Shown in pieces: positions 32,529 through 46,890 of a stretch of DNA of 64,000 nt (positions are counted from its first letter, which is position 1; every line of letters starts with the position of its first letter). The DNA comes from Streptomyces virus LukeCage (Duplodnaviria; Heunggongvirae; Uroviricota; Caudoviricetes): IMG/VR virus record IMGVR_UViG_2974629454_000001, positions 59,119-123,118 of that record; one strand, given 5' to 3'. The translations under genes and the position numbers were made by a program. Under the pieces are notes generated by a model. That model searched no databases. It was not told the origin of the DNA and was given only the letters and a program-made list of their open reading frames with translations.

Positions 32529-32590
32529 AGTAACTAAGCGAGCGAGGCAAAAGTATGGTATCCTTTAGTACACAATTAAAGGAGCCGTAT

Positions 32591-32758: not shown

Positions 32759-32761
32759 AAA

Positions 32762-33148: not shown

Positions 33149-33167
33149 TCGTCGGCCTTCGGGCCTA

Positions 33168-33239
33168 GTCTCCATAGTTTAATGGACAGAACGGTTGCCT
33201 CCTAAGCAACAGATTCCGGTTCGAATCCGGGTGGGGACA
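33168..33239 (+). tRNA. tRNA-Arg(CCU)
   Basis: Acceptor gtctcca/tggggac; anticodon arm gttgc-ctcctaa-gcaac; T arm tccggttcgaatccggg. Confidence 0.7.
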
Positions 33240-33241
33240 CG

Positions 33242-33270
33242 TTGACAGATCGGCCCGGTGAGGGTAGAGT
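33242..33270 (+). promoter_or_regulatory. sigma70-like promoter TTGACA-N17-TAGAGT(AGTT)
   Basis: Same family as the promoters at 32500 and 35742. Confidence 0.55.
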
Positions 33271-33321
33271 AGTTAACAGATCGAAGGTGAGCGTCTTGAA
33301 GCACACTACACTGGAGGTCAA

Positions 33322-33474
33322 ATGAAGGTTTGGGTTATCACCGAAGAGTGCGGATGTGGCTGGTACTCTGGAGAGGTGATCAAGGGTACATACTCTACGG
33401 AAGACAAGGCAAAGAAGGCGCTCGAAAAGATGGGCGACAGCTACCTTGAAATTCGTGAGTTGGAAGTAGAATAA
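33322..33474 (+). CDS. small Cys-containing protein (50 aa)
   Basis: GGAGG Shine-Dalgarno; ECGCGW. Confidence 0.45.
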   Translation: MKVWVITEECGCGWYSGEVIKGTYSTEDKAKKALEKMGDSYLEIRELEVE

Positions 33475-33489
33475 GCCCTTCGGGGTTAT

Positions 33490-33562
33490 GGGGTTGTAGC
33501 TCAATTGGAAGAGCATCTGCATGGCATGCAGAAGGTTGTGGGTTCGAGTCCCATCTTCTCCA
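33490..33562 (+). tRNA. tRNA-Ala(GGC) (two U-U mismatches in the acceptor)
   Basis: G3-U70 present; D arm gctc/gagc; anticodon arm tctgc-atggcat-gcaga; T arm gtgggttcgagtcccat. Confidence 0.5.
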
Positions 33563-33797
33563 CTCTTTTAATGGTTCTTCACAGAGGTGATAGTAACCAT
33601 GCGGGTCAGCTCTAGCAGGCTGATATTGGGTGCAAGGTAATAGCCCGTACACACCCCTTGCAGCAGACACACCACATGTGCTAGCATGGTCTGTAGATGG
33701 CAACGAGCTGGTAACTTGAAGCCATCGATTATTTCCCGAGGAACTGACGCGCTATGCGCTAAGCCTCTATTCGCTGTAAGGTACCTTGCAGCAACCA

Positions 33798-33870
33798 GCT
33801 CCGGTAGCTCAGTTGGTAGAGCAGTTGACTCTTAATCATCAGGTCCACGGTTCGAGTCCGTGTCGGAGTA
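33798..33870 (+). tRNA. tRNA-Lys(CUU)
   Basis: gcagttgactcttaatcatc resembles the E. coli Lys anticodon arm; acceptor gctccgg/tcggagt; T arm cacggttcgagtccgtg. Confidence 0.65.
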
Positions 33871-33883
33871 CAAAGCAAGGTTG

Positions 33884-33936
33884 CAAACTTGCTCAATCAT
33901 GTTGGGGTTCGATTCCCTCTGGTGAAACAACATGGT
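33884..33936 (+). other. structured element: nested inverted repeats enclosing a ggg-ttcgatt-ccc T-arm-like hairpin
   Basis: ctcaat catgttg gggttcgattccc ... caacatg ... attgag. Confidence 0.35.
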
Positions 33937-33995
33937 GTAATTGAGTAGGAAAAGGCGGCACCATTATGCGGTGCGCTGTCTAGCCTCTCTCTTAT

Positions 33996-34069
33996 GATCC
34001 AGTCGCACAATTGGCCGTGCAATGGGCTCTTAACCCTTGTGAATGTGAGTTCGAGTCTCACCTGGATCA
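33996..34069 (+). tRNA. tRNA-Lys(CUU) (paralogue of the 29820 gene)
   Basis: Acceptor gatccag/ctggatc; loop ctcttaa; T arm gtgagttcgagtctcac. Confidence 0.65.
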
Positions 34070-34253
34070 CGTTTGGAAGCAGGCAAGCATACGCCCCACG
34101 ACTAGCCCAGAAGCCTGTGTAAGCTAGTCCGGCATAGAAGCGGCGCAGACAAGGGAAGGGCCGCCAGGTGGGAGTACCGCTACAGTGTGGCGATTGTAGT
34201 AGGCACAAGGGATGAGACCACCAGCCAACATTAATTCAATTCTCTGGGGAGCT

Positions 34254-34424
34254 ATGGCTAACAACAAGGTATGGAAGGTCGGGGACAAAGTAAAGTCCAA
34301 CGACAACAAGTATAGTGGAACTGTCAGTAAGATCGTTGACGCCAATCATGTAAATGTTAACGTCAGTGGTCATGGAGATATGCAATTCCGTAACAGGGAG
34401 CTAAAGCGCCAGTTTGGTGGCTGA
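34254..34424 (+). CDS. small KOW-like protein
   Basis: Shine-Dalgarno GGGGAG; KVWKVGDKVKS. Confidence 0.45.
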   Translation: MANNKVWKVGDKVKSNDNKYSGTVSKIVDANHVNVNVSGHGDMQFRNRELKRQFGG

Positions 34425-34432
34425 GGCCCTAT

Positions 34433-34507
34433 GATTCCTTAGCTCAGTTGGTAGAGCACCAGACTTTTAATCTGTTGTGGTCCTCGGTTCGAGTCCGAGA
34501 GGAATCA
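34433..34507 (+). tRNA. tRNA-Lys(UUU)
   Basis: Perfect acceptor gattcct/aggaatc; D arm gctc/gagc; loop cttttaa; T arm ctcggttcgagtccgag. Confidence 0.7.
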
Positions 34508-34508
34508 C

Positions 34509-34655
34509 GTGAAGAATGGTGATATAGTCAAGATAACGGAAGGCCCGAATAAGGGTAAGTCGGGCATAATAGAAGGTAAGGCTGGTAAGACCTACATTGT
34601 TAGGACAAATTCAGGCACCTACTACGTTCACGAAAATCATGTAAAACCTGTTTGA
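34509..34655 (+). CDS. small KOW-domain protein (GTG start)
   Basis: KNGDIVKITEGPNKGKSGII is a classical KOW motif. Confidence 0.4.
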   Translation: MKNGDIVKITEGPNKGKSGIIEGKAGKTYIVRTNSGTYYVHENHVKPV

Positions 34656-34692
34656 CAGCAACACCATCTAGGAGTACAGTTACTTCTAGCTT

Positions 34693-34765
34693 CCCTCTGT
34701 GGCGCAACGGATAGCGCAGCGGTCTTCGAAGTCGTTGGTTGGGGGTTCGAATCCCTCCAGAGGGG
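34693..34765 (+). tRNA. tRNA-Arg(UCG) candidate (wobble-rich anticodon stem, C1:G72)
   Basis: Acceptor ccctctg/cagaggg; D arm gcgc/gcgc; loop cttcgaa; T arm gggggttcgaatccctc. Confidence 0.5.
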
Positions 34766-34945
34766 CAACCTCTCCAAGAGGTTCTTGACATAGCCAGAAT
34801 GGCATGTCATATTATAAGAGAGAGCACACGGACAAGGCTTAGGCGGATGAGGGATAAACAGGGGATGCCTGCTAACCAACAAGCCGGTGGGATGCGAGTG
34901 GTGATGCTCTCTCTTTCTAATATCCAATCCTAAACAAGGAGCACC

Positions 34946-35740
34946 ATGGGATTCCTTTCCCGTAAGATTAAGCCGACCTTCGTTCCGGCTAAGAATCTCT
35001 CAGCGAAGAAGACAGTAACCCTTACGCCGATTGTTTCTGGTCAGCCTGCTGCGAATGTCAGCCTGATCAAGCAGAATGGTGTCAGCTTCGAGAAGAAGGT
35101 CGAAAGCGCCGTCAAGCTCCAGAAGGACGCTGGCGTTGCAAGTCGATTCGATGTAATTGGTCTGGTGGATGAGTCCTACTCAATGGACTACATGTTCGCC
35201 AATGGTACTGTTCAGGCAATCACCGAACGAGTGCTTGCATGGACTGCCGGTGTGGATGCTGATGGCATGGCACCTGTTGGCGGATTTGCCAATGGCTTCC
35301 AGTGGCATGGTGAAATCGACCTGACAAATGTCATGGGTTGTGCATCAAGCTGGGGATGCTGGGGAGGCACTGACCTTGCAGCCGGTCTTCGAGAGGCTTT
35401 TGAGGTTGCTAAGGGTGCGGACAATCCTGTTTATCTGTTCATTGTCACCGATGGTGCGCCTAACGATCAGAAGGCTGTGATTGAGCTGGTTTCTCAGATG
35501 AGCGAATACCCGATCTTCATCAAGATTGTTCTTGTCGGTGATGATCCGTTCGGTAAGCGTTTCGTTGACTATCTGGACGACCTTGAGAAGCACGAGCCTG
35601 GCCGCCGTCTCTTTGACAACGTGGACACTCAGCACATCCGTGACGCTTCTCGTGTCAGCGATGACGATTTCAACAAGGCGATGACGGAGGAAGTTCCGTC
35701 AGCGATTGACGCAATGCGTCAGGTTGGTCTAGTCGTCTGA
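34946..35740 (+). CDS. vWA domain protein
   Basis: Metal-ion-dependent adhesion site (MIDAS) DESYSMD; LFIVTDGAPND. Confidence 0.65.
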   Translation: MGFLSRKIKPTFVPAKNLSAKKTVTLTPIVSGQPAANVSLIKQNGVSFEKKVESAVKLQKDAGVASRFDVIGLVDESYSMDYMFANGTVQAITERVLAWTAGVDADGMAPVGGFANGFQWHGEIDLTNVMGCASSWGCWGGTDLAAGLREAFEVAKGADNPVYLFIVTDGAPNDQKAVIELVSQMSEYPIFIKIVLVGDDPFGKRFVDYLDDLEKHEPGRRLFDNVDTQHIRDASRVSDDDFNKAMTEEVPSAIDAMRQVGLVV

Positions 35741-35741
35741 T

Positions 35742-35770
35742 TTGACAAGCCCTGCTTGATCCTGTAGAGT
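35742..35770 (+). promoter_or_regulatory. sigma70-like promoter TTGACA-N17-TAGAGT(AGTT)
   Basis: Lies upstream of the tRNA-Met pair. Confidence 0.55.
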
Positions 35771-35861
35771 AGTTACTACAAACCAGCTCATACTTGGCCG
35801 AATGGCCCGGTGGCGTTCAGGGAAGCTGGGTAGTGTGGTAGAGTGAACGTACCCACACAAT

Positions 35862-35934
35862 GGCTCGGTAGTGAAACTGGCTATCACGCTTCGCTCATAA
35901 CGAAGTATTTCGGGTTCGAGTCCCGGCTGAGCTA
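35862..35934 (+). tRNA. tRNA-Met(CAU) (elongator or Ile2-type)
   Basis: Acceptor ggctcgg/ctgagct; D arm gtga/tcac; anticodon arm cttcg-ctcataa-cgaag; T arm tcgggttcgagtcccgg. Confidence 0.7.
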
Positions 35935-35937
35935 CAA

Positions 35938-36005
35938 AGCGGATTAGTGAAACGGTATCACGCGAGGCTCATAATCTCGTATTCCTGTTCGAATCAGGGT
36001 CCGCC
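35938..36005 (+). tRNA. second CAU-anticodon tRNA with a 4-bp T stem and an A1-C72 mismatch
   Basis: D arm gtga/tcac; anticodon arm cgagg-ctcataa-tctcg; T arm cctg-ttcgaat-cagg. Confidence 0.5.
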
Positions 36006-36087
36006 CCCACGTGATAGTGAAAGGAAGCATCATACCGATGCGATACGACTAAACTCCTTCTACCGTTAAAAGTAGAAGGAGGTGCAA

Positions 36088-36207
36088 ATGCCAGGACCAA
36101 TGAGTCGCCCTGATGGCATTCGAGAGAATGCCGAACAGCGCAAAGAGCGCGGGCGCAAGATCATGACCGGTAAGCCTGTTAAGACAGGCAAGACTGCAAA
36201 GAAGTGA
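36088..36207 (+). CDS. small basic protein (39 aa)
   Basis: AAGGAGGT Shine-Dalgarno. Confidence 0.4.
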   Translation: MPGPMSRPDGIRENAEQRKERGRKIMTGKPVKTGKTAKK

Positions 36208-36213
36208 GGTGCT

Positions 36214-36399
36214 ATGCCACAACGCTTCGTCAAGGATCTTGGCGAGGCTAACAGTGAAGAACATGCTTGGGAAATCTGTGTAGAACTTCGACAGAATATG
36301 TCAAAGGGAGCAGTAGCGGAATTCAAGCGTAAGAATTATATCTTCAAGCCTCATAAGATCAAGAGCAGATGGCATGCCTGTCTGTTCCAGAACTACTGA
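36214..36399 (+). CDS. hypothetical protein
   Basis: ORF track; a ggccttcgggcc terminator follows. Confidence 0.45.
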   Translation: MPQRFVKDLGEANSEEHAWEICVELRQNMSKGAVAEFKRKNYIFKPHKIKSRWHACLFQNY

Positions 36400-36419
36400 T
36401 AAACGGCCTTCGGGCCTAA

Positions 36420-36501
36420 GCATGAGCGGCGAAGTTGGAGAGACGCGGTGGTCTGTAAAACCATTCCTTCGGGTGAGTCAGTTCGAATCTGACCTCATGC
36501 A
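36420..36501 (+). tRNA. tRNA-Tyr(GUA), class II
   Basis: Perfect acceptor gcatgag/ctcatgc; loop ctgtaaa; long variable arm; T arm gtcagttcgaatctgac. Confidence 0.7.
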
Positions 36502-36557
36502 CGTACAGTATAATAGAAAGAAGAGGTTGTAGCAGCTCCTCTGGAAAAGCTGCCTAT

Positions 36558-36629
36558 GCATGTAAGCCAGGGATAAGCTAGGCGGGCCTGTAAAGCCCTA
36601 CCTTGTTGGTTCGAATCCAACTACATGCA
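36558..36629 (+). tRNA. class I tRNA with anticodon GUA (Tyr-decoding) and no long variable arm
   Basis: Acceptor gcatgta/tacatgc; anticodon arm gggc-ctgtaaa-gccc; T arm gttggttcgaatccaac. Confidence 0.5.
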
Positions 36630-36631
36630 CT

Positions 36632-36704
36632 GTGACGTAAGCCGAGCGGTTAAGGCACTTGGTTGTGACCCAAGGTTTGGCGGGTTCGACTCCCGTACGT
36701 CACC
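36632..36704 (+). tRNA. tRNA-His(GUG), no encoded G-1, C73
   Basis: Acceptor gtgacgt/acgtcac; anticodon arm cttgg-ttgtgac-ccaag; T arm gcgggttcgactcccgt. Confidence 0.7.
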
Positions 36705-36735
36705 CTCTACACGTCCCTCTAACATTGGAACAAAC

Positions 36736-37113
36736 ATGGAAGACAAGTGGGGCAGGCAGGGTTTTCTCAATCCCGTAGACAGCCGTGATGACGGTTGGTA
36801 CAAGTTCGCTACTGAGTTCACCAAGGATGATCGTAAGATCTGTGTGAACACTCAGTTCACAATTTCAGACTGTTCAAACAAGGCTTATCTAGAGTTTGAT
36901 GTTCGATATCTCTACTTCGGTACAACTTCTCTGGACGAGATCTCTGAGCGCCAGAAGGAAATAAATGCCCGGCGCAAGAAGGTCAAGGAACTTCGTGATG
37001 CTGTAGCAGAATGGGCAGAAGAAACCCTCGCTATTTACGACAAATACGAGGATGCCCTAAAGAGCATCAAGAAGGAAGCCAAGAAGAATGGGAAAAAGAA
37101 GGGTAGCAAGTAG
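36736..37113 (+). CDS. hypothetical protein
   Basis: The ORF-track ORF 36625-37113 was trimmed to the first ATG downstream of tRNA-His. Confidence 0.5.
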   Translation: MEDKWGRQGFLNPVDSRDDGWYKFATEFTKDDRKICVNTQFTISDCSNKAYLEFDVRYLYFGTTSLDEISERQKEINARRKKVKELRDAVAEWAEETLAIYDKYEDALKSIKKEAKKNGKKKGSK

Positions 37114-37420
37114 TCTTGCGATCATGCTACTGAGTGTAGTAGCATGTAGTCGTGGGGAATCAGACTTCTCTACTAAAGACAAGGCTTTTCTCAAGACTGT
37201 GAGACAAGAGATCACAGCAAGTAGAGACATGTCTGATGGTCAATTGATTGAGTCTGCTAAGGCTGTTTGCAATATAGCAAAGGAAGAACAAAATTTCCTA
37301 GTTGTAGTTAGCAAAACACGCCCGGCGCTAGGATTCACCCCAAGTGATACTAGCTACTATGTAGGCGCATCAATTGCTGCTTACTGCCCTGAAAACAAAG
37401 ACATCATTCCTGGAGCATAA
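37088..37420 (+). CDS. lipoprotein
   Basis: Signal peptide with lipobox VVAC. Confidence 0.55.
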   Translation: MGKRRVASSLAIMLLSVVACSRGESDFSTKDKAFLKTVRQEITASRDMSDGQLIESAKAVCNIAKEEQNFLVVVSKTRPALGFTPSDTSYYVGASIAAYCPENKDIIPGA

Positions 37421-37421
37421 A

Positions 37422-37676
37422 ATGCAGATTGGTTTTGAATACATTGAGGGCAATGGTCCTTTCACAGTAGTAGGCTATATCGGAGACAGCTTCAATCCCT
37501 TGAAGCAGCCTTTCGAGCTTCACTATCATGATGGATTCGCAGAACTCATTATCATCACAGATGACTATGTAGTTCGTGCCACTGGAGAATACAACAGAGG
37601 CATTGGCGTTCTCAATGCTGGAGAAACTGGTCAGCTCATTTTTAACCTAGTCCATCAACTTGACAACGGGGACTAA
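37422..37676 (+). CDS. hypothetical protein
   Basis: ORF track, trimmed. Confidence 0.45.
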   Translation: MQIGFEYIEGNGPFTVVGYIGDSFNPLKQPFELHYHDGFAELIIITDDYVVRATGEYNRGIGVLNAGETGQLIFNLVHQLDNGD

Positions 37677-37695
37677 CTCCTGTAATGTAGTTAAT

Positions 37696-37771
37696 GGCGC
37701 TGTTGCAGATGGTTCTTCTGCCGATAGTCTGCAAAACTATTCGATAGAGGGTTCAATTCCCTCCAGTGCCT
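37696..37771 (+). tRNA. tRNA-Cys(GCA) candidate (extra nt near position 26, 6-nt variable loop)
   Basis: Acceptor ggcgctg/cagtgcc; anticodon arm atagt-ctgcaaa-actat; T arm gagggttcaattccctc. Confidence 0.5.
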
Positions 37772-37773
37772 CT

Positions 37774-37848
37774 GCCGGATTAGCTCATTTGGTGTAGAGC
37801 GGCTGTCTTGTAAACAGCAGGTGATCGGTTCGAAACCGATATCCGGCT
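37774..37848 (+). tRNA. tRNA-Thr(UGU)
   Basis: Perfect acceptor gccggat/atccggc; anticodon arm gctgt-cttgtaa-acagc; T arm atcggttcgaaaccgat. Confidence 0.7.
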
Positions 37849-37940
37849 CAATGGAGGACCAACCCAGGGAGAATGCAACCGAACTGGGCAATGGGAATTC
37901 AGGACGGTCTAGTACCTAGTTGCAGGGGAACGGCCTTTAT

Positions 37941-38012
37941 GCCCCCATAGTGCTAGTGGTAACACGGTATCTTGGTAAGATACTATCGTCAGTTCGATTC
38001 TGACTGGGGGAT
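37941..38012 (+). tRNA. tRNA-Thr(GGU) (G1-A72 mismatch)
   Basis: Anticodon arm gtatc-ttggtaa-gatac; T arm gtcagttcgattctgac. Confidence 0.6.
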
Positions 38013-38145
38013 CTGGAAAGGATGTGTTTTAATGAACACTCTTAAGCTAAGGGCAAAGGCACTATACCTAAAGGCCAAGCCTTACTTTCCACTGGCACTT
38101 GTCTGGTGGAATTCACGCAAGAAGAAGGCTAAGTAAGCCTTCCAT

Positions 38146-38218
38146 CTCTCTATAGGCTAATTGGATAAACCAAGGTGCTACGAACGCCTAATTGTCGGTT
38201 CGAGTCCGGCTAGAGAGA
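38146..38218 (+). tRNA. tRNA-Arg(ACG)
   Basis: Perfect acceptor ctctcta/tagagag; anticodon arm aggtg-ctacgaa-cgcct; T arm gtcggttcgagtccggc. Confidence 0.6.
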
Positions 38219-38219
38219 C

Positions 38220-38250
38220 TGGCCCCGATCTAATGATCGGGGCCTTAATT
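38220..38250 (+). terminator. rho-independent terminator
   Basis: ggccccgatc taat gatcggggcc ttaatt. Confidence 0.6.
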
Positions 38251-38270
38251 CATGTTAGGGATGATTTAAC

Positions 38271-38420
38271 ATGTGTGAAATCGAACGGTGGGAAAGTGAG
38301 GGAGGAAAGGCAACAAAGATTCCCTGCATTTTTCACGGAAAAGAATACAAACAACACGACTTCTACTACGGAGATCAATGTCGTAGATGTGGAGTCTGGA
38401 AAGATGAGGAACAAGATTGA
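38271..38420 (+). CDS. small Zn-ribbon protein (49 aa)
   Basis: C...C...CxxC; its stop overlaps the next start. Confidence 0.35.
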   Translation: MCEIERWESEGGKATKIPCIFHGKEYKQHDFYYGDQCRRCGVWKDEEQD

Positions 38421-38974
38421 AGATCTTTTATGACACTGAATTTTATGAAACTGGACCGGAAGAGCCTGTTAGGTTCATCAGTCTAGGAGCGGTGCGCGAG
38501 GATGGTGAGAGGCTGTATCTGATCACCAATAACCTCTACGTGCTCAACAGAGCAAATGAGAATGAGTGGATGAGGGAGAACGTCATCGCCCATTTGCCAG
38601 TAAAGCAGACGGCCACTGGAAGCCTCGCATGGGACACTCAGCATCCTGACTATGCAAGGGTGCTACCGAACGAAGCGATTGCTGGATTGTGGAGAGACTT
38701 CGTTTTGGACTACGATGAGGCACATGAGTTTGACAAGCCTGAGCTGTGGGCATACTATGGAGCCTATGACCATGTGGTTGTCAGCCAACTCTTTGGACGT
38801 ATGATTGACTTGCCAGATGGCATGCCAATGTATACGATGGATCTAAAGCAGCGGTGGCACAATGAGGGAAGACCTCCACTACCAAAGCAGGATGGCGGAG
38901 AGCACAACGCCCTTGACGATGCACTGTGGAATAAGATAGTATCAGAATATCTAGACGCCTACGGCGAGAGGTAA
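38417..38974 (+). CDS. DEDDh 3'-5' exonuclease (DnaQ/RNase T-like), TTG start
   Basis: N-terminal FYDTEFYETG matches exonuclease motif I (Exo I); C-terminal HNALDDALW matches exonuclease motif III (Exo III, H..D). Confidence 0.7.
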   Translation: MKIFYDTEFYETGPEEPVRFISLGAVREDGERLYLITNNLYVLNRANENEWMRENVIAHLPVKQTATGSLAWDTQHPDYARVLPNEAIAGLWRDFVLDYDEAHEFDKPELWAYYGAYDHVVVSQLFGRMIDLPDGMPMYTMDLKQRWHNEGRPPLPKQDGGEHNALDDALWNKIVSEYLDAYGER

Positions 38975-38976
38975 AA

Positions 38977-39147
38977 ATGGGTAATAACAGCGGCCTCAAT
39001 GAGTACGTTTGTCAGACATGCAATCTGTTTACCAATATAGCTGATCAAGGCAAGGCGAAGGCATTTCATCGTAAGTTCATCAAGGAGCACGCTCCCGATT
39101 TGGTAACAGTCGCAGAGTGGAACCGTAAGCTAGAGAAGGGCAAGTAA
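38977..39147 (+). CDS. small hypothetical protein (56 aa)
   Basis: Shine-Dalgarno GAGAGG; CxxC. Confidence 0.4.
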   Translation: MGNNSGLNEYVCQTCNLFTNIADQGKAKAFHRKFIKEHAPDLVTVAEWNRKLEKGK

Positions 39148-39542
39148 TGGGTGATCGCACCAATGTTGGCGTAGTTATGCGTGGAAGCAACGGGCAGGAG
39201 AAGCTTGGCATTCTGTGGGTTTACTCACATTGGGGTTTGCCTGGCATCACTGCTTCAATTGCAAAGGCTCTTGACAACGCCAAGGGCAGGTGGGATGATG
39301 ATATGTATGGACAGCGAATCTTCGTTCAGTCCATCATGGAGGCCGGTGGCATGGAAGGTGGTTCTGAGCTAGGAGGTGGCCTAAGCTTTAATTTCATTGC
39401 TGACAATGAGCATAAGCTTTGGGTTGCAGACTTCTACGATCAGACGATGTATCTCTTCCCTGAGTATAGCGGTGGTCTTGACACACCGGAGCCTCTTGTG
39501 GCAACATCATTTCAGAACTTCGTCACTAAGTATCTTAAGTGA
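39147..39542 (+). CDS. hypothetical protein
   Basis: ORF track; a gcccttcggggc hairpin follows. Confidence 0.5.
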   Translation: MGDRTNVGVVMRGSNGQEKLGILWVYSHWGLPGITASIAKALDNAKGRWDDDMYGQRIFVQSIMEAGGMEGGSELGGGLSFNFIADNEHKLWVADFYDQTMYLFPEYSGGLDTPEPLVATSFQNFVTKYLK

Positions 39543-39563
39543 CGTAAGCCCTTCGGGGCTCTA

Positions 39564-39841
39564 GGGGATGCCTTGGTTTCGACTGGGGTGGATGACTTTA
39601 GTTTGCAGCCTGACATTGAGGAGATGTCATTAAAAAGCCTCAAACCTATAAATGCCAACTCTAACGTTGCATCTGCCTACGCCCTAGCGGCGTGATGGCC
39701 GGGCGGCAACTGCCTAGGAACAGAAAGTTGCGAATGTTTGGCCCGGTGGGGATAAACACACGCAGTATCTGCTTGACACATGGCTGTGTATAGACTACTG
39801 TTTGAAGCATCAGGACGCGGGTTCGACTCCCGCCATCTCCA
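39564..39841 (+). ncRNA. ssrA: tmRNA (SsrA), compact about 278-nt form; tag peptide ANSNVASAYALAA
   Basis: The 5' end ggggatgccttggtttcgactgggg and the 3' end ggacgcgggttcgactcccgccatctcc align with the E. coli tmRNA termini. The acceptor ggggatg/catctcc carries G3-U70. The tag ORF gcc...tga at 39664-39705 ends in YALAA. Confidence 0.85.
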
Positions 39842-39854
39842 CTTAAGGATCAAA

Positions 39855-40169
39855 ATGAACTTGACAGGACGGTCTACCATGGTAGACTTTGATCTGACCG
39901 AGCAAGACGCCAGAACCATTCAGAAGAGTATGCGAACTGGCCCTGTGACTCTCAAGGTTACTAGAGTTCAGATCAGCTACACTTATGGCATGGTGCTGGT
40001 AGGTCTTGATCGGAATCCCGGTCCTCACTACAAGGTGAGAGTGTCAGGATATAGAATGAAGGCTGGTATGAAGCAACGCGATACTGTTGTTCAGCACAGC
40101 TATCTAAATCCTGATCTTCCTGACTGGCTAGAGCAAATGGTTGTTGACAACGCCCCCAACTGGTACTAG
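39855..40169 (+). CDS. hypothetical protein
   Basis: Trimmed to the first ATG after the tmRNA; Shine-Dalgarno AAGGA. Confidence 0.5.
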   Translation: MNLTGRSTMVDFDLTEQDARTIQKSMRTGPVTLKVTRVQISYTYGMVLVGLDRNPGPHYKVRVSGYRMKAGMKQRDTVVQHSYLNPDLPDWLEQMVVDNAPNWY

Positions 40170-40178
40170 GATGTAAAC

Positions 40179-40403
40179 ATGCCGAAATGGATGCGACTTC
40201 CGGGAACGGACAAGCACAACAGCCTTGGTTACAGGGTTGGATCTGCTTTCGAAAATGGTTATGGCGATGAAGGGCCTCTGGCCAAGGGAATCGTCGTAGG
40301 AGGATGCGTCTTTCTTCCTCTTCTCATCGCTGCTGGTGCCCTTGGTGGTGCTGGTTATGGACTGTGGAGGCTTGCCGAATGGCTCTGGACTATGATAGCC
40401 TGA
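40179..40403 (+). CDS. small membrane-anchored protein
   Basis: C-terminal hydrophobic helix. Confidence 0.45.
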   Translation: MPKWMRLPGTDKHNSLGYRVGSAFENGYGDEGPLAKGIVVGGCVFLPLLIAAGALGGAGYGLWRLAEWLWTMIA

Positions 40404-40448
40404 TGAAGAAGTGGATGGAAACCATCCGAAGAATTGAAGGGCAAAGAA

Positions 40449-40628
40449 ATGACTGAGGCTTTCATCGTTTATTATCGAGACGCCAATTCATGGAACTCAG
40501 TGAATGAGTTGCCCAAGGCGATCTTCCTTGACAGAGAATCAGCCGAAGAGTATGCTGGTAAGCAGCCAGGATACGGATTGAATCAAGATTGGTTCGTAGA
40601 GGCGAGACCTCTTAACCCAAAGGACTAA
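40449..40628 (+). CDS. hypothetical protein
   Basis: ORF track, trimmed. Confidence 0.4.
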   Translation: MTEAFIVYYRDANSWNSVNELPKAIFLDRESAEEYAGKQPGYGLNQDWFVEARPLNPKD

Positions 40629-40629
40629 C

Positions 40630-41034
40630 GTGCGTACCAAAACAGTTACCAAGCTGGTGCGTAATCTCACGCAAAAAGAGTACAGCCAATGCAAGTCTCT
40701 GAACTTCCGCTATGATGGCTGTATGATGTATGATCTTCCCTGGTCTAAGAAGGCTTTCCCAAGGCAGGCCAGGGTGGTCATGATCAAGGATGCTGAGACT
40801 GACATGCTTATTGCATGGTGTCTAGCATATCCAAACAATGCGGGTGACAATTTCATCACTCAGTATTACACTAGAGTGAAGTTCCGCAACATGGGCTACG
40901 GAAGCCGTCTGATTTACCATGTCAGAAAGTTCGCTCCCAGTCCTGTAGTAATGCCGCACGATCCAAATAGTCGTGCATTCTTCCGTAAGCACGAAGACAA
41001 GATCACTGTCCGTGCTTCTCACTCTCTTTACTGA
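40630..41034 (+). CDS. GNAT-family acetyltransferase (GTG start)
   Basis: FRNMGYGSRLI matches the acetyl-CoA-binding motif A. Confidence 0.55.
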   Translation: MRTKTVTKLVRNLTQKEYSQCKSLNFRYDGCMMYDLPWSKKAFPRQARVVMIKDAETDMLIAWCLAYPNNAGDNFITQYYTRVKFRNMGYGSRLIYHVRKFAPSPVVMPHDPNSRAFFRKHEDKITVRASHSLY

Positions 41035-41044
41035 AAGGCCCAAA

Positions 41045-41260
41045 ATGGCTAAGCGTGTTAAGGCTGTCGAGCTTCGTTCCACCGACCGTTCCAACTTCTC
41101 CAACCTGTATGTTGCTGGTAATTGGATCGGTCTTGTCGAGACCAGCAAGGTTGGCCGAAGGACTAACTACCGACTGCACCACGGCAAGCGTAACTTCGAG
41201 GACTTTCTTGGCACCAAGAAGGACTTCGAGGCTTTTGCCAAGGAGCGCTTCACCAAGTGA
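41045..41260 (+). CDS. hypothetical basic protein
   Basis: Shine-Dalgarno AAAGG; the C-terminal part of ORF 40973-41260. Confidence 0.45.
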   Translation: MAKRVKAVELRSTDRSNFSNLYVAGNWIGLVETSKVGRRTNYRLHHGKRNFEDFLGTKKDFEAFAKERFTK

Positions 41261-41264
41261 GGTA

Positions 41265-41513
41265 ATGATGTTTGACAGGGTTGTCAAGAGTTACGACTAC
41301 TCCTGCTACGCCTGTCCGGTAATTGTAGATGGCTTCCTTAAGTCTGGGGAGCCATTCTATTTCCGCCTTCGTCATGGTGTCGCCAGGCTCGTTCTGGAGG
41401 ATACAAAACGCGCGGCGGTGATGGAAGCAATTGACGGTCTAGACGGCACATGTAGCGATGAGCAGTTCAAGCAAATGTTCAATCGTCTGTACCTTGAAAT
41501 CGTAATGGGCTGA
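41265..41513 (+). CDS. hypothetical protein
   Basis: Shine-Dalgarno GAGGT; the protein-like C-terminal part of ORF 41055-41513. Confidence 0.45.
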   Translation: MMFDRVVKSYDYSCYACPVIVDGFLKSGEPFYFRLRHGVARLVLEDTKRAAVMEAIDGLDGTCSDEQFKQMFNRLYLEIVMG

Positions 41514-41523
41514 AAGGCCCTAA

Positions 41524-41594
41524 TGCTACGTAGCTTAATATGGCAAAGCAACTCTTGGCCAGAGTGTCATGTGGTTCGAATCCCATCGTAGCAG
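41524..41594 (+). other. tRNA-like gene with a degenerate T stem (possible pseudo-tRNA)
   Basis: Perfect acceptor tgctacg/cgtagca; D arm gctt/aagc; ggttcgaatcc T loop but only 2-3 bp of T stem. Confidence 0.4.
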
Positions 41595-41673
41595 CCATAT
41601 CAATTAGACTTCATAATCTCTCTCCTGCTATACTATAGATGCCTAATTCATCAGAGGCAGGAGGATTGATTAT

Positions 41674-42114
41674 ATGGATTTTGTAGAACATCTGGGCTAC
41701 CAATACCTCACTGACCTTCTGACGGAAATCCGCGTAGGCCAGCAGGGATTGGAGGAAAGAATGGCAGACCTAACAACTGAGGTTGCAAACCTCCGTGAGG
41801 CAGTAAGCGGTGTTAGCGCACGTGTAGATGCTCTTGTTGGTCCACTAACGGATGCCGTTAGAGAGGCACAGGATGCACTAGCAGCCGAGCGTCAGGCAGC
41901 AGCAGATCTTGCAGCAGCCGAAGATGCAGAGGACGTAGCGCAGAACCAGGCTCTTGCAGATGCGCAGGCTGCAACAGATGCCGCACTTGCAAACGCTCAG
42001 ACAGCAGCCGACGAGATCAGTGCAGAAACTGCACGTCTTAACGAGGTTGCAAAGCCAGCCGAGGAACCTACTCCAGAGCCAGAGCAGCCATCTGGTCCAG
42101 TAGTAGAAGGTTGA
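41674..42114 (+). CDS. Ala-rich coiled-coil protein
   Basis: Shine-Dalgarno CAGGAGGA; low-complexity Ala/Asp/Gln repeats. Confidence 0.5.
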   Translation: MDFVEHLGYQYLTDLLTEIRVGQQGLEERMADLTTEVANLREAVSGVSARVDALVGPLTDAVREAQDALAAERQAAADLAAAEDAEDVAQNQALADAQAATDAALANAQTAADEISAETARLNEVAKPAEEPTPEPEQPSGPVVEG

Positions 42115-42125
42115 TAAAAAAGGAG

Positions 42126-42155
42126 TTGACAGCCCCTATAGGTCTCTAGTAGACT
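42126..42155 (+). promoter_or_regulatory. sigma70-like promoter TTGACA-N18-TAGACT
   Basis: Lies upstream of the long tRNA-like element. Confidence 0.45.
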
Positions 42156-42170
42156 AGCTGTCATAAGCAT

Positions 42171-42298
42171 GGCCCCAAAGAGTCACTAGCGGTCTACGGT
42201 AGCGCTGCCGCCCGTTAGACTCCATGCGGCACCAGGCTTGTGCAACCGACGGGTTGAGAACATAAGCAAAGGGGAGGGTTCGAATCCCTCTGGGGTCC
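42171..42298 (+). other. 128-nt tRNA-like RNA: acceptor + canonical T arm + a D stem with a 32-nt loop
   Basis: Acceptor ggcccca/tggggtc; D-like stem gagtc...gactc; T arm gagggttcgaatccctc. Confidence 0.35.
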
Positions 42299-42369
42299 AC
42301 TATGATTATAAACTATGACCCTGGTTAAGTAGCTTGACAAGCTACACTACAACAACTAGGATGTGATGT

Positions 42370-42666
42370 ATGGCTACCATCAAGGAACGCGGCACCGACA
42401 AGTGGAACATGAGCAAGGCGACTCGTCGCAGCGCTCGCAACTTTGTCGAGCGGGAGAAGGTTGGCAAGGCTAAGAAGAAGAACACTCGCAAGTGGTGCAA
42501 GGGCAAGGAAGGACGTAAGCACACTCTCGCCCTTTACAACAAGTACACTTGGCGTCACGGCTACAAGTGCCTCAAGTGCAGCAAGGAGTTCTACTTCCCC
42601 ATCAGCCGCGAGGACTTCGACTTCGTTGAGCGCAAGTGGGAAGATGACTACAACTGGGGCAACTGA
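42370..42666 (+). CDS. basic Zn-finger-like protein
   Basis: ORF track; CKGKEGRKH...CLKC. Confidence 0.5.
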   Translation: MATIKERGTDKWNMSKATRRSARNFVEREKVGKAKKKNTRKWCKGKEGRKHTLALYNKYTWRHGYKCLKCSKEFYFPISREDFDFVERKWEDDYNWGN

Positions 42667-42851
42667 TGCAGCTTAAGATGTACGCTATTGCCTGTGATCA
42701 AGCAGAAGCTATCAAAAACTGCTACACAGGCAAGTACACAAATCAACCATTCTGGCCAGAGCATAAGACTCTGGTTCCATATCTAGAAAGAGCCAGGGAA
42801 GAAAACCCTGATCTTCAACTCAAGATCTTTGTCATTAAGGTGAGCGGATGA
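42666..42851 (+). CDS. hypothetical protein
   Basis: ORF track. Confidence 0.45.
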   Translation: MQLKMYAIACDQAEAIKNCYTGKYTNQPFWPEHKTLVPYLERAREENPDLQLKIFVIKVSG

Positions 42852-43003
42852 TTTTTTACGCAATTGCCAAAGATGAGTCTCGCGCACTTCGTAGCGATTT
42901 TCGTTTCTCCAGCAAGGAAGAAACAAAGAAGAAGTGTGCAGAGATCAATGAGAAGACGGATGGCGGATACTTCGTATTCGAACTAACTGTTAAGAAGGTG
43001 TAA
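42848..43003 (+). CDS. small hypothetical protein (51 aa)
   Basis: ATGA overlap with the upstream stop; preferred over the antisense ORF 42856-43314. Confidence 0.35.
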   Translation: MIFYAIAKDESRALRSDFRFSSKEETKKKCAEINEKTDGGYFVFELTVKKV

Positions 43004-43005
43004 AA

Positions 43006-43269
43006 TTGGCCGGTAACAAGAACAGCCGTAAGAAGTGGCTTTGTCTTGACTGCGGTGTTGACACTGGTAGGATTGGCGAACACTTCTTTCTGATCAACGA
43101 TGTCTGGTCCTTGACAGGGCTTGGACACAAGGGTATGCTCTGTGTAGAGCACGTTGAGAAGCGCATCGGCAGGCGTCTTGTTCCGGCCGATTTTGCTTCT
43201 GTATGGATTAATGGACCGCGAGGCGGAACGAAGAGTCAGCGCCTTGCCAATCGATTGGGATATAAATGA
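43006..43269 (+). CDS. Zn-finger protein
   Basis: CLDCG...CVEH. Confidence 0.5.
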   Translation: MAGNKNSRKKWLCLDCGVDTGRIGEHFFLINDVWSLTGLGHKGMLCVEHVEKRIGRRLVPADFASVWINGPRGGTKSQRLANRLGYK

Positions 43270-43490
43270 GTGCTGGTCTTCGCACAGTTGACATCTTCGA
43301 TGAGATGCGTGCAAAGTCTAAGGGTGAATATGTAGAGACTGTCAACGGATTTGAAATCTGGGATGTTGGCACGCATGGTCACAGCACATACATGCTTTTT
43401 AAGCGGCGGGGCAAGCAGATGTTCATGTCTACAGGCTCCTTCTCCCCTTTGAGTTATGCTCAAAGGTTGGCAAGAGAAACAAAGCTGTGA
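43266..43490 (+). CDS. hypothetical protein
   Basis: ORF track. Confidence 0.45.
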   Translation: MSAGLRTVDIFDEMRAKSKGEYVETVNGFEIWDVGTHGHSTYMLFKRRGKQMFMSTGSFSPLSYAQRLARETKL

Positions 43491-43666
43491 AGTCTCTAGG
43501 CATTAAAGTTGGCGATACAGTCTGTGACTGTCGCTTCCTTCACCTAAAGGTCTTGAAGATCTGGCCCGATGGTGATACAGTGTCACTAGAAGATGGATCA
43601 AGTTGCTCCATCAGACATTGCTTGGATGCCGCTGATCACGAATGGCAGCATCCAGAAAACTACTAA
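43487..43666 (+). CDS. small KOW-like protein (GTG start)
   Basis: GIKVGDTV; GTGA overlap with the upstream stop. Confidence 0.35.
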   Translation: MKSLGIKVGDTVCDCRFLHLKVLKIWPDGDTVSLEDGSSCSIRHCLDAADHEWQHPENY

Positions 43667-43678
43667 CCTGGAGGACCG

Positions 43679-44755
43679 ATGAAGTTCACCAAGATCTTCT
43701 CACAGGAGTTGCTTGACGAGATGATCTCAGAGGGCTATGTCCGGGCGCAGTTTCATCCGGTCCTGCCTCTCAAGATTCTCAACTACTCTGAGAAGACTCA
43801 GTTCGCTGGAAAGTGGAACGACTGCACGCTTAACTGTCGTGGGTTGATCGTTGATCTCGACGGCAACTTGATTGCTCGTCCTTTCATGAAGTTCTTCAAC
43901 TTGGGTGATTCTCAGTCCGCACAACTTGACTGGGACGCTCCGGTTGAGGTTACGGACAAGAAGGACGGATCAATGGGAGTCCTGTACTCCTATGGTGGTC
44001 AGTTGGCGATTGCTACTCGTGGATCATTCATGTCAGATCAGGCAATCCACGGTACTCGTATTCTTAACGAGCGCTACAGCCACATTCAGTTCGTCTCAGA
44101 CTACACATTTATCTTCGAGATCGTTTACCCTGAGAACAGGATTGTTCTGGACTACGGTTCAATGGACGACCTGATTCTTCTGGGTGCGGTTCACAAGGAA
44201 TACGGTTACGTTTGTGGTCCTCTGGAGGCTCAGGCAATTGTAGATTGGGACGGGCCGGTGACGGAGGTCTTCAATTACAGCTCATTGCGTGAGGCGTCTG
44301 GAGCGCAGTACAGGAAGAACGCAGAGGGTTTCGTAGTCCGCTCTGGCAACAAGATGGTCAAGATCAAGCAGGCAGATTACGTTGAGCTGCACCGCATGAT
44401 CTCCATGCTTTCAGAGCGTTCCGTATGGAGTCAGCTTACCGAGGGCAAGACGATTCTTGAGATTTGTGAGGCACTGCCTGACGAGTTCCACGGATTTGTC
44501 AAGGACGTTGGTGGCAAGCTCCTTGAGGACTACGAGCGCATTGAGGTTGAGGTTTATGGTATCTACCAGAACCTTCTAACTTCTCTGGGCGAGGGCTTCA
44601 CGCGACGTGATTTCGCAATGGCTGCAAACCGAATTGATCTCTACAGGTCTCACATGTTCAACCTGCTTGACGGGAAGAGCATCAATGAGCTAATCTGGAA
44701 GCAGATCAGGCCGGAAGCCAAGCGAGAGGACGTACACCCTACCAATGCGGGCTAA
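43679..44755 (+). CDS. ATP-dependent RNA ligase, Rnl2-like nucleotidyltransferase
   Basis: Motif I TDKKDGSMG (KxDG), motif IV NAEGFVVRS (EGFVV) and motif V MVKIKQADY; Shine-Dalgarno GGAGGA. Confidence 0.7.
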   Translation: MKFTKIFSQELLDEMISEGYVRAQFHPVLPLKILNYSEKTQFAGKWNDCTLNCRGLIVDLDGNLIARPFMKFFNLGDSQSAQLDWDAPVEVTDKKDGSMGVLYSYGGQLAIATRGSFMSDQAIHGTRILNERYSHIQFVSDYTFIFEIVYPENRIVLDYGSMDDLILLGAVHKEYGYVCGPLEAQAIVDWDGPVTEVFNYSSLREASGAQYRKNAEGFVVRSGNKMVKIKQADYVELHRMISMLSERSVWSQLTEGKTILEICEALPDEFHGFVKDVGGKLLEDYERIEVEVYGIYQNLLTSLGEGFTRRDFAMAANRIDLYRSHMFNLLDGKSINELIWKQIRPEAKREDVHPTNAG

Positions 44756-45035
44756 CGAGGAATGGCGTAAAGATCCTCGTCGTAGGTCACTGGCCGAGCA
44801 CCTTTGCAAGAAGCGTGCTCGGCTGTACCTTATGATGATCGAAGATCTTGAGCGCGCACAAAGAAGTCTCCGAATGATTCAGGAGACTAAAGAAGAGATT
44901 CCGAATGCCGCCAACGGATATCGAGCAATGAATTTCGCTTTCGATATCGAAGAGGCCCGGCGCAAGTACAATCACTACAACAACCCCACAGAAACCCTAA
45001 TAGGCAACATGGCTGCCTTCGGAGAGGGAGCATAA
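44745..45035 (+). CDS. hypothetical protein
   Basis: ORF track. Confidence 0.45.
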   Translation: MRANEEWRKDPRRRSLAEHLCKKRARLYLMMIEDLERAQRSLRMIQETKEEIPNAANGYRAMNFAFDIEEARRKYNHYNNPTETLIGNMAAFGEGA

Positions 45036-45093
45036 TGAACGAGTTTATTGCTAAGCACCCTGTTGCATTCGCTGTCACATTCTTTGTGATCGG

Positions 45094-45300
45094 ATGGATT
45101 ATCGGGTGAATGAAGCAAGAAGGAAGGCACAAGCAGCAGTTGGCAAGGGCAAGTGTGTAAGTCTTGCTGGTCTTCCAATAGGATGCGGAGCGTCAGTCTC
45201 AGAAAATGATTTCCGAGACGAACTCTCCAAGAGGGAGTATAAGATCTCTGGTCTCTGCCAGTCTTGTCAAGACAGATTTGAGGCGATGCTTGATGAGTGA
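45094..45300 (+). CDS. hypothetical Cys-containing protein
   Basis: ORF track. Confidence 0.4.
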   Translation: MDYRVNEARRKAQAAVGKGKCVSLAGLPIGCGASVSENDFRDELSKREYKISGLCQSCQDRFEAMLDE

Positions 45301-45391
45301 AAAGAACTTCGTCTGCATGGATTGCGGAACTCCGTTTCCAAATCATCAGCCCACGTGCCCTTGGCACCCTAACAACCTAGGCAAGAAGTGA
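45206..45391 (+). CDS. small Zn-ribbon protein (likely starts at ATG 45294)
   Basis: CMDCG...CPWH. Confidence 0.35.
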   Translation: MISETNSPRGSIRSLVSASLVKTDLRRCLMSEKNFVCMDCGTPFPNHQPTCPWHPNNLGKK

Positions 45392-45503
45392 TCGCACTGA
45401 CAGCAGGTCTCGTTATCGGGACCTGCGTCTTTGTTTACGGACTCATAGATGGGTTGACAGACAGAGGCAGGCGCGATAGTCTGGTTACAGATCGAACGAA
45501 GGA

Positions 45504-46400
45504 GTGAAGATGCAGCTTCTCATCCTCCGGGGAATTCCCGGTTGTGGTAAGAGCACTTGGGCGCATGATGTGTGGCTCAAGGAAAACCCGAATGGTGTTC
45601 GAGTCAATCGTGATGACATTCGTATGCAGCTCTTTGGCCGGGAGACCGGAGTAGACGAGGAGCTTGTTACTCGAATTGAGCACGGAATGGTGGATGGGGC
45701 TCTGTCAAAGGGCTACTCTGTCGTTGTCGATGACACGAACATTCGACACAAGTACATCAAGGAATTCGTCAAGATCGGTCAGCGCCATGGTGCTAGTGTT
45801 TCAGTTAAGCAGTTTGACGTTTCACTTGAGACGGCAATTCAGCGAAACACTGTTCGTGCTGCACTCGGTGGTCGAGACGTTCCTGAGTCTGTCATTCGCA
45901 AGATGCACCAGTCCATGAAGTCTAGTGGAGTTTTCACTGACTTCCACACAAGCGTTACGGCTGTTCGTCCTTACGATCGTCCCGAAGGTGCAGAGAAGGT
46001 TTACCTCTTTGACATTGATGGCACGCTTGCTGAGATGAACACTCGTGATCCTTTCTACTGGAAGGGTGTTGGCGAGGACGATCCGCGACGACAGGTGATC
46101 ATCACTGCTCAGGCTCATGCTAAGGCAGGATACAAGATCATCGTTATGAGCGGTCGAGATGGCTCATGCCGCAATGAAACAATCGCTTGGCTGGAACTCT
46201 ACGACATTCCTTTCTCAGAATTGCACATGCGTGCTGAGGGGGACATGCGTAAGGACTCTGTCGTCAAGCAAGAGCTGTTCGATGAGCACATTCGTGACAT
46301 CTATGATGTTGTGGCTGTGTACGATGATCGTCAGCAGGTTGTTGACATGTGGCGTGCGATGGGCATAGACTGTTTCCAGGTAGCACCCGGAAACTTCTGA
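45504..46400 (+). CDS. polynucleotide 5'-kinase/3'-phosphatase (T4 Pnk-like)
   Basis: N-terminal P-loop GIPGCGKST; C-terminal HAD motifs VYLFDIDGTLAE, IIVMSGRD and AVYDDRQQ. Confidence 0.8.
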   Translation: MKMQLLILRGIPGCGKSTWAHDVWLKENPNGVRVNRDDIRMQLFGRETGVDEELVTRIEHGMVDGALSKGYSVVVDDTNIRHKYIKEFVKIGQRHGASVSVKQFDVSLETAIQRNTVRAALGGRDVPESVIRKMHQSMKSSGVFTDFHTSVTAVRPYDRPEGAEKVYLFDIDGTLAEMNTRDPFYWKGVGEDDPRRQVIITAQAHAKAGYKIIVMSGRDGSCRNETIAWLELYDIPFSELHMRAEGDMRKDSVVKQELFDEHIRDIYDVVAVYDDRQQVVDMWRAMGIDCFQVAPGNF

Positions 46401-46432
46401 CAAAAGGGAGCTTCGGCTCCCTTTTGTTGTTT
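46401..46432 (+). terminator. rho-independent terminator
   Basis: aaagggagc ttcg gctcccttt tgttgttt. Confidence 0.65.
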
Positions 46433-46441
46433 GGAGAATAA

Positions 46442-46861: not shown

Positions 46862-46890
46862 AGTATCAACAACAACGACGAAGGGTCGAA

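Follow-up and report, generated by a model that had tools for sequence, protein, structure and literature searches.

A compact transfer-messenger RNA in Streptomyces phage LukeCage: domain map, comparative evidence and probable role in ribosome rescue

Introduction

Within a 64,000-nucleotide stretch of DNA from Streptomyces phage LukeCage (the window), a gene of 278 nucleotides (nt) at 39564..39841 on the + strand has the features of a transfer-messenger RNA (tmRNA, SsrA). An initial annotation, made from the sequence alone, had proposed a compact, phage-encoded tmRNA at this position. The locus raises the question of whether so short an RNA still works as a tmRNA, or is instead a competitor of the host molecule, a decaying relic, or a copy of an integration site. 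The comparative evidence presented here makes it highly probable that the RNA is a functional phage-encoded tmRNA, which would rescue stalled ribosomes by ordinary trans-translation with host proteins.

LukeCage is a 133,195-base-pair lytic siphovirus of S. griseus (Stanwilliamsviridae, Karimacvirus, cluster BE2). A 601-base query around the tmRNA gene is 100% identical to its genome (MH590597.1 / NC_048723.1), in which gene 192 is already annotated as “tmRNA” at 98682..98960 (window coordinates equal record coordinates minus 59118). Megablast-level matches to this query are found in 93 records. A more sensitive search finds a homologue in ~97 Streptomyces phage records, many of them annotated with “Tag peptide: ANSNVASAYALAA*” or related tags, and the gene is present in both Stanwilliamsviridae subfamilies, the Boydwoodruffvirinae and the Loccivirinae. 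Cluster BE1 phages carry 43–48 transfer RNAs (tRNAs) and one tmRNA per genome (PMC5764925), and BE2 phages such as CeilingFan likewise carry tRNAs and one tmRNA (PMC13191466). Given its GenBank annotation and the published reports of a single tmRNA per genome in both phage groups, the LukeCage tmRNA is already known, and its identification here is a confirmation rather than a discovery. Outside these groups, mycobacteriophages and Bacillus phage G are also on record as carrying ssrA genes (PMC4131195), and in mycobacteriophage Wildcat no other lytic gene is expressed as highly as the tmRNA (PMC7474061).

Results

Identification of the tmRNA gene

ARAGORN places a tmRNA at 39564..39842 on the + strand, with the tag ANSNVASAYALAA*. 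The Rfam tmRNA family RF00023 matches 39564..39844 end to end (model positions 1–374) with 93.1 bits (E 6.1e-35), against a gathering score of 47 bits, which is far above chance level. Both checks that the initial annotation had suggested thus return a tmRNA, in agreement with the GenBank entry for gene 192. It is a complete ssrA gene that belongs to a genuine phage genome: the window and the LukeCage genome are 100% identical in sequence, and the gene sits between phage genes in a tRNA island, as expected from the proposal that it is phage-encoded. The gene measures 278 nt to the discriminator base, compared with 367–403 nt for the tmRNAs of Streptomyces hosts, so its description as shorter than typical bacterial tmRNAs was also correct.

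The termini of the gene, GGGGATGCCTTGGTTTCGACTGGGG at the 5′ end and GGACGCGGGTTCGACTCCCGCCATCTCCA at the 3′ end, read as had been described and are joined by a 7-base-pair acceptor stem, P1. In this stem, the 5′ strand GGGGAUG (39564..39570, positions 1–7; window coordinate = 39563 + tmRNA position) pairs with CAUCUCC at 39834..39840 (positions 271–277). The 3′ strand is followed by the discriminator base A (39841, position 278), a C (39842), and then TT. The third pair, G3·U275, is the equivalent of the G3·U70 alanine identity element, which had been noted.

Comparative evidence for conserved structure

Conservation was assessed on 20 distinct homologues, 267–300 nt long, from BE2/Karimacvirus, the Jay2Jay-Pepperwood-Daubenski type, BE1/Samistivirus, Tomas, the distant Faust-Blueeyedbeauty-TunaTartare group, and three IMG/VR contigs. 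The contigs came from a scan of IMG/VR with the conserved 3′ motif of P2, the helix that follows the tRNA-like 5′ end. The scan found 49 loci, 17 of them with a tmRNA; only three, from uncultured-virus contigs, were added, and most of the remaining loci were rejected as chance matches (for example L156, in coding sequence). The annotated tmRNA of Stenotrophomonas phage Marzo (MZ326868.1; L190 540..914) overlaps two annotated tRNA genes, looks doubtful, and was left out of the comparison. The structure was specified by hand on the alignable parts, as anchored mini-constructs comprising P1, four P2 segments, both stems of the pseudoknot PK1, the outer part of helix P5, the post-tag hairpin, and the T-arm, 54 pairs in all. 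These constructs replaced RNAalifold on a plain MAFFT alignment, which gave a partial structure and register errors at the 5′ end.

Standard pairs occupy 91.8% of the pair cells across the 20 homologues, versus 39–48% when the 3′ partners are slid by 1–3 columns. Compensatory, two-sided changes are seen in 21 of the 54 pairs, and none of 500 shuffles reached the observed pairing, covariation score or compensated-pair count. The acceptor stem (1–7/271–277) and the T-stem (254–258/266–270) are 100% paired in all 20 sequences. The identity pair is G·U in 20/20, while acceptor positions 4–6 covary. The two stems of PK1 are 99.2% (48–53/61–66) and 97.9% (54–58/75–79) paired, with four and one compensated pairs, respectively. 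These patterns indicate that the core helices of the tmRNA family are under selection as structure.

The tag reading frame

The tag frame lies at 39654..39695 (positions 91–132, the coding part given by ARAGORN). It starts at the resume codon GCC, runs for 13 codons (ANSNVASAYALAA), and stops at TGA. The codons are those of the open reading frame that had been claimed, GCC AAC TCT AAC GTT GCA TCT GCC TAC GCC CTA GCG GCG TGA. Among the homologues, 11 distinct tag-coding sequences encode ANSNVASAYALAA, ANSNVAFALAA, ANSKFAFALAA, DNSNVAFALAA, AESNSAFALAA, ANSKNASAYALAA and ANYKNASAYALAA, and the tag ANSKFAFVLAA is annotated in one further record. Each position of A-L-A-A-stop is written with two to three synonymous codons in these 11 sequences, its meaning never changed, and Y/F is the sole amino acid change in the last six tag positions. 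The tag classes differ in length by two whole codons, in frame. In the tmRNA of Tomas (L010 151..423), the resume position is GAC (Asp) and not a GCN alanine codon, giving the tag DNSNVAFALAA. This substitution pattern is that expected for a translated frame and indicates purifying selection on the peptide.

Domain architecture of the phage tmRNA

All of the following elements are on the + strand. The tRNA-like domain comprises the acceptor stem, a D-loop analogue with GGUUUCGAC (positions 8–19), and the T-arm GCGGG-UUCGACU-CCCGC (39817..39833, positions 254–270), which has one covarying pair (C-G/G-C). Helix P2 links this domain to the remainder of the RNA, its 5′ strand (39583..39610, positions 20–47) pairing with 39782..39813 (219–250). 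Segment P2d (GCAGCC/GGCUGU) is invariant in the family, and five pairs of P2a carry compensatory changes. Next is PK1 (39611..39642, positions 48–79), with stems 48–53/61–66 (UGACAU/AUGUCA) and 54–58/75–79 (UGAGG/CCUCA). A single-stranded leader, AACCUAUAAAU (39643..39653, positions 80–90), precedes the resume codon and aligns to the Rfam consensus AAUAAuU preceding the GCa resume codon; its last six bases, AUAAAU, directly ahead of that codon, do not vary in the family. The initial annotation had made its proposal depend on a pseudoknot and a tag-frame context, and both are found: PK1 lies upstream of the resume codon with both stems covarying, and the peptide encoded by the tag frame is conserved.

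Helix P5 (39675..39699; 112–120/126–136) contains the end of the tag frame, with the stop codon in its 3′ strand. Its outer part is 100% paired and includes one pair with a compensatory change. As read from the sequences, tmRNAs of the two tag-length classes both form the inner helix, in different registers. P5 is followed by a PK2-like element (39698..39751, positions 135–188), composed of a putative outer helix, 135–140/179–184, and an inner hairpin, 143–147/164–168, capped by the apical loop CCUNGNAACAGAA. All five pairs of the inner hairpin covary. Across 15 sequences, including the very divergent Faust group, 11 of the 13 bases of the loop (39713..39725, positions 150–162) are invariant, while the stem below covaries freely; TunaTartare has one change in the loop. 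Among the candidate pairings examined, none established a partner for the loop. A candidate pairing between the loop and the 3′ side, 150–154 with 184–188, would make the element a true pseudoknot. The outer helix and this loop pairing can form in 9/9 BE2 and Jay2Jay-type sequences, with one-sided changes only, and no equivalent of the loop pairing was found in BE1 phages.

A short variable linker (39752..39781, positions 189–218) takes the place of PK3 and PK4. In the Rfam alignment, the 87 model positions of these two pseudoknots, in segments of 32 and 55, have only 4 + 7 matching bases. Three candidate pairings were considered and not retained as conserved. A small hairpin at 199–209 was rejected as a conserved element, being broken in Wofford and UViG10218. 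A pairing of the AACAGAA loop with UCUG near 205–208 was not accepted as conserved, and a GGGCUA/UAGCCC pairing in BE1 is contradicted by Bmoc and Riptide. Because only 11 bases match the 87 model positions and the hairpin is not conserved, the shortness of the phage tmRNA is attributed to the loss of PK3 and PK4 plus shrinkage of PK2.

In TunaTartare (MW822145.1, record 80158..80936; L017 259..1037), the tmRNA gene is present and unannotated. A 498-nt open reading frame for an HNH endonuclease (L017 441..938) lies inside it, after the PK2-like hairpin, where relatives have the small hairpin. The insertion leaves the tag frame (ANYKNASAYALAA) intact, and the Rfam score is still 50.5 bits across 779 nt. 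No intron family was detected, and among the relatives examined only TunaTartare has the insertion.

Comparison with phage relatives and with Streptomyces host SsrA

The tmRNAs of cluster BE phages (such as Karimac, StarPlatinum, Peebs and Jay2Jay) belong to the same gene family, of which LukeCage is itself a member, and share its genomic neighborhood and architecture, with 74–100% nucleotide identity among Boydwoodruffvirinae phages. Faust-group phages match the LukeCage tmRNA only in part. StarPlatinum, Karimac, Genie2, Wofford and many other records have a tag identical to that of LukeCage, ANSNVASAYALAA. In contrast, BE1 tmRNAs are 12 nt shorter, with the tag ANSKFAFALAA, and the PK2-like loop-to-3′ pairing is apparently absent.

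Host tmRNAs were found by scanning bacterial genomes, one per species, for a pattern made up of the acceptor GGGGATG, GGTTTCGAC, and a tag ending in FALAA-stop; many Streptomyces and other Actinomycetota matched. The scan required F at position −5 and thus sampled F-type host tags only, which does not argue against YALAA use in Streptomyces. A literature search for a Streptomyces host tag string returned nothing, and host tags were taken from the genome scan. With ARAGORN, the Streptomyces tags include ANTKRDSSQQAFALAA, ANTKRDSFALAA and ANSKRDSSAFALAA; the sampled tags start with AN[ST]K, have a charged K-R-D-S core, and end in FALAA.

The phage and Streptomyces RNAs have the same acceptor stem, GGGGAUG with G3·U70, an identical GGUUUCGAC, and 28 of 29 bases in common at the 3′ end of the tRNA-like domain. 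Both have the resume codon GCC, PK1 and P2. The host RNA has a full PK2–PK4 ring, encoded CCA, and 59% G+C, whereas the phage RNA has no PK3 or PK4, no encoded CCA, and 52% G+C. Comparison of the tags, which the initial annotation had called for, shows that both start with AN and end with ALAA, with differences in the core and at the F/Y residue. The host core is charged and its end is FALAA; the LukeCage core is uncharged and its end is YALAA; BE1 relatives end in FALAA like the host. The claim of a canonical YALAA degron therefore holds for the phage tag as read, but the sampled Streptomyces tags, for which F was prescribed, end differently. The phage tmRNA most likely descends from an actinobacterial ssrA that was then trimmed to the compact form.

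The 3′ end and partner proteins

CCA is not encoded in the phage gene, which ends ...CCA-C-TT (discriminator A, C, then a non-C base), whereas host ssrA genes encode it. All 43 tRNA and tmRNA genes of the window (13105..57042) have C directly after the discriminator base. In 40 of them the next base is not C, and only the first base of CCA is encoded; the other three encode full CCA. Because the “C then non-C” end recurs in 40 of 43 genes, it suggests that the phage tRNAs and tmRNA share a route of 3′-end maturation. No CCA-adding enzyme was recognized in the LukeCage record. The only candidate gene encodes a 173-residue protein annotated as “nucleotidyltransferase”, the sole Pfam match of which, to RlaP, is below the cut-off.

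In the host, the gene for SmpB (Pfam PF01668, E 5e-62) lies just upstream of ssrA. A tblastn search with host SmpB against 50,697 phage records found no SmpB in Streptomyces phages, and no SmpB, aminoacyl-tRNA synthetase or integrase is annotated in the LukeCage record. Because none of these partners was recognized in the phage, its RNA, judging from gene content, must rely on host SmpB, alanyl-tRNA synthetase (AlaRS) and CCA-adding activity, the last presumably the host's. The near-identity of the phage tRNA-like domain to that of the host fits this reliance.

Genomic context

The window contains 42 tRNA genes on the same strand as the tmRNA; the LukeCage record annotates 44. An additional weak Rfam tRNA match at 15280..15356 (+), with 30.3 bits, just above the gathering score, has no ARAGORN call and no annotation in the record. 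The tRNA island also contains an RNA-repair and surveillance set: Ro60, with TROVE and vWA domains (21844..23472), an Rnl1-type RNA ligase (43679..44755), a polynucleotide kinase-phosphatase (PNKP; 45510..46400), and a small RlaP-like nucleotidyltransferase (14741..15262).

LukeCage gene 189 (38417..38974, +) carries the annotation “DnaQ-like DNA polymerase III subunit”. In Pfam it matches best the Rv2179c-like 3′-5′ exoribonuclease domain (PF16473, E 6.7e-7, 29.6 bits versus a cut-off of 27), and in BE1 phages its counterpart ends ~10 nt before the tmRNA gene. The gene 189 product may trim the 3′ ends of the tRNAs and the tmRNA. The flanking genes 191 and 193 had no match in Pfam and, not being conserved neighbors of the tmRNA in BE1 phages, were dropped as candidate tmRNA partners.

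A GC-rich hairpin, AGCCC-UUCG-GGGCU (39547..39560, +), follows the stop codon of gene 191 and precedes the mature 5′ end by 3 nt. A hairpin in the equivalent place is present in 13 of 16 relatives examined, ending 2–4 nt before the tmRNA 5′ end; none is evident in Faust-group phages. The sequence is AGCCC-UUCG-GGGCU in BE2, Jay2Jay, Tomas and Mildred21, and GGUGA-CUCA-UCACC in BE1, where the hairpin overlaps the end of the exonuclease gene. It could serve as a terminator that has no U-tract, or assist processing. At the other end, the ribosome-binding site of the downstream gene starts within a few bases of the tmRNA 3′ end. The closeness of this site and the hairpin 3 nt before the 5′ end support processing from a longer transcript.

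Two further observations concern the surroundings of the gene. TTGACA-type promoter-like sites number 19 in window 37600..41700, versus 5.0 in shuffles (about four times as many), and are mostly on the + strand; sites flank the tmRNA at 39271..39299 upstream and 39861..39888 just downstream. In the 319-nt gap between tRNA-Leu and tRNA-Phe, an unannotated 128-nt tRNA-like RNA is found at 28493..28620 (+; Rfam tRNA, 32.5 bits). It retains an intact acceptor stem, D-arm and T-arm but has a 71-nt insert in place of the anticodon arm, and folding gave no significant structure (z −0.58). Because the phage encodes a Ro60 homologue, this RNA, with its tRNA-like module, could be a partner of the Y-RNA type.

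Discussion

Gene architecture, conservation and the missing partners are read here from the sequence, and the biochemical steps are proposed by analogy with the established tmRNA pathway. The tmRNA would be transcribed rightward with the surrounding island of tRNAs and small genes and cut from the longer transcript, presumably by RNase P at G1, with 3′ trimming. Because only C74 is encoded, CCA is proposed to be added after transcription, by a CCA-adding enzyme that is presumably the host's. Host AlaRS would charge the RNA with alanine through the invariant G3·U70, following the established identity rule, and host SmpB would bind a tRNA-like domain almost identical to the host's. The complex would enter ribosomes stalled on broken or stop-less messenger RNAs (mRNAs). 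Translation would resume on GCC at 39654, adding (A)ANSNVASAYALAA, and the ribosome would be freed at TGA, the ALAA end directing the product to degradation by ClpXP or other host proteases. What the phage probably gains is free ribosomes in the infected cell. Many stalls are expected because of mRNA and tRNA damage and codon mismatch, the phage having 48% G+C and the host ~70% (48.4% in the window versus 69–71% at the host loci). On this reading, the tmRNA belongs with the tRNA genes and RNA-repair genes of the phage.

Several points weigh against a working tmRNA. P2a of LukeCage has internal mismatches, G24/A246 and G27/A243. PK3 and PK4 are missing, and a PK2 pseudoknot in the phage RNA is an unproven candidate; the PK2–PK4 ring that is typical of the tmRNA family is represented by the PK2-like element only. 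Reduced tmRNAs exist, however, and the ring is typical of the family rather than universal, so that its absence does not exclude membership. CCA is not encoded and no enzyme that would add it was recognized in the phage. The minimum-free-energy fold, computed with nested pairs only, is not significantly better than shuffles (z −1.64). This value carries little weight beside the comparative result, because the method cannot represent pseudoknots. The TunaTartare RNA either tolerates the HNH insertion or comes from a gene that is dispensable there. Finally, the benefit to the phage is inferred.

The strongest alternative, itself quite improbable, is that the phage RNA acts as a competitor or re-targeting device, out-competing the host tmRNA for SmpB and AlaRS, with the phage tag changing the fate of products or host trans-translation being damped. 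The phage tag is shorter and is without the charged K-R-D-S core of every sampled Streptomyces tag, and host SmpB must be shared, no phage SmpB having been found. A precedent is the “tmRNA” of mycobacteriophage DS6A, which is likewise phage-borne, with a tRNA-like domain that could engage SmpB; it has little beyond that domain and has been suggested to inhibit tmRNA by titrating SmpB (PMC4131195). The LukeCage RNA, however, retains PK1, P5 and the tag frame, all conserved, which rules out a mimic of the DS6A type consisting of a tRNA-like domain only. Its full mRNA-like domain, PK1 and an ALAA-stop end under purifying selection fit real tagging with a normal degron, and BE1 relatives end in FALAA exactly as the host does. 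Competition and rescue are also not mutually exclusive.

A decaying relic, captured from a host, no longer used, and persisting only by recent common ancestry, is very improbable. It would account for the loss of PK3 and PK4, the unencoded CCA, the P2a mismatches, and the interruption by an HNH gene in TunaTartare. The relic reading is contradicted by homologues at 74–78% identity and by the still more distant Faust/Blueeyedbeauty group, which keep every core helix through compensatory changes, and by a tag end retained through synonymous changes only. The distribution of the gene over both the Boydwoodruffvirinae and the Loccivirinae argues in the same direction. An attP-type copy of the host ssrA 3′ end, as in temperate phages that integrate into ssrA, is scarcely conceivable: the last 29 bases are identical to Streptomyces ssrA at 28 positions, but the whole gene is present rather than a 3′ fragment, the RNA has diverged from the host except at both ends of the tRNA-like domain, the 133-kb record has no annotated integrase, and BE2 phages are described as without integrase and repressor (PMC13191466), so that complete tmRNA architecture and the lack of an annotated integrase refute it.

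A functional tmRNA thus remains the preferred reading, and within it the RNA need not be merely a spare host copy. The near-invariant loop CCUNGNAACAGAA and the uncharged tag might give it phage-specific behavior, for instance through recruitment of a factor, from the phage or from the host, or through another fate for tagged proteins, but this is improbable. If true, the tmRNA would act with the phage tRNAs, Ro60, RNA ligase and PNKP against RNA-cleaving defenses of the host.

Other known tmRNAs differ in lineage or in plan. Escherichia coli SsrA is 363 nt long, with the tag ANDENYALAA, four pseudoknots, and an SspB-binding portion in the tag. It shares the overall plan and the YALAA end with the LukeCage RNA; the two tags have only the last five residues in common. 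Similar to the LukeCage gene, the tmRNA genes of mycobacteriophages (cluster C1 phages such as Bxz1, and Wildcat) and Bacillus phage G reside in large lytic genomes rich in tRNA genes (PMC4131195, PMC1475703). They belong to other hosts and other sequence lineages, and no nucleotide similarity of the LukeCage tmRNA to them was detected by blastn (E 1e-3).

As a discovery the LukeCage gene adds little: it already has its GenBank annotation, as do its counterparts in dozens of related phages, and phage tmRNAs have been catalogued since the mycobacteriophage genomes. The present analysis adds comparative evidence, from the structure as well as from the tag peptide, of selection for a working tmRNA. 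A further addition is a domain map, according to which the tRNA-like domain, P2, PK1, the tag frame, P5 and a PK2-like hairpin have been kept, and PK3, PK4 and encoded CCA discarded. This natural minimal design, together with its dependence on host SmpB and AlaRS, would make the phage RNA a convenient system for asking why large lytic phages invest in ribosome rescue.

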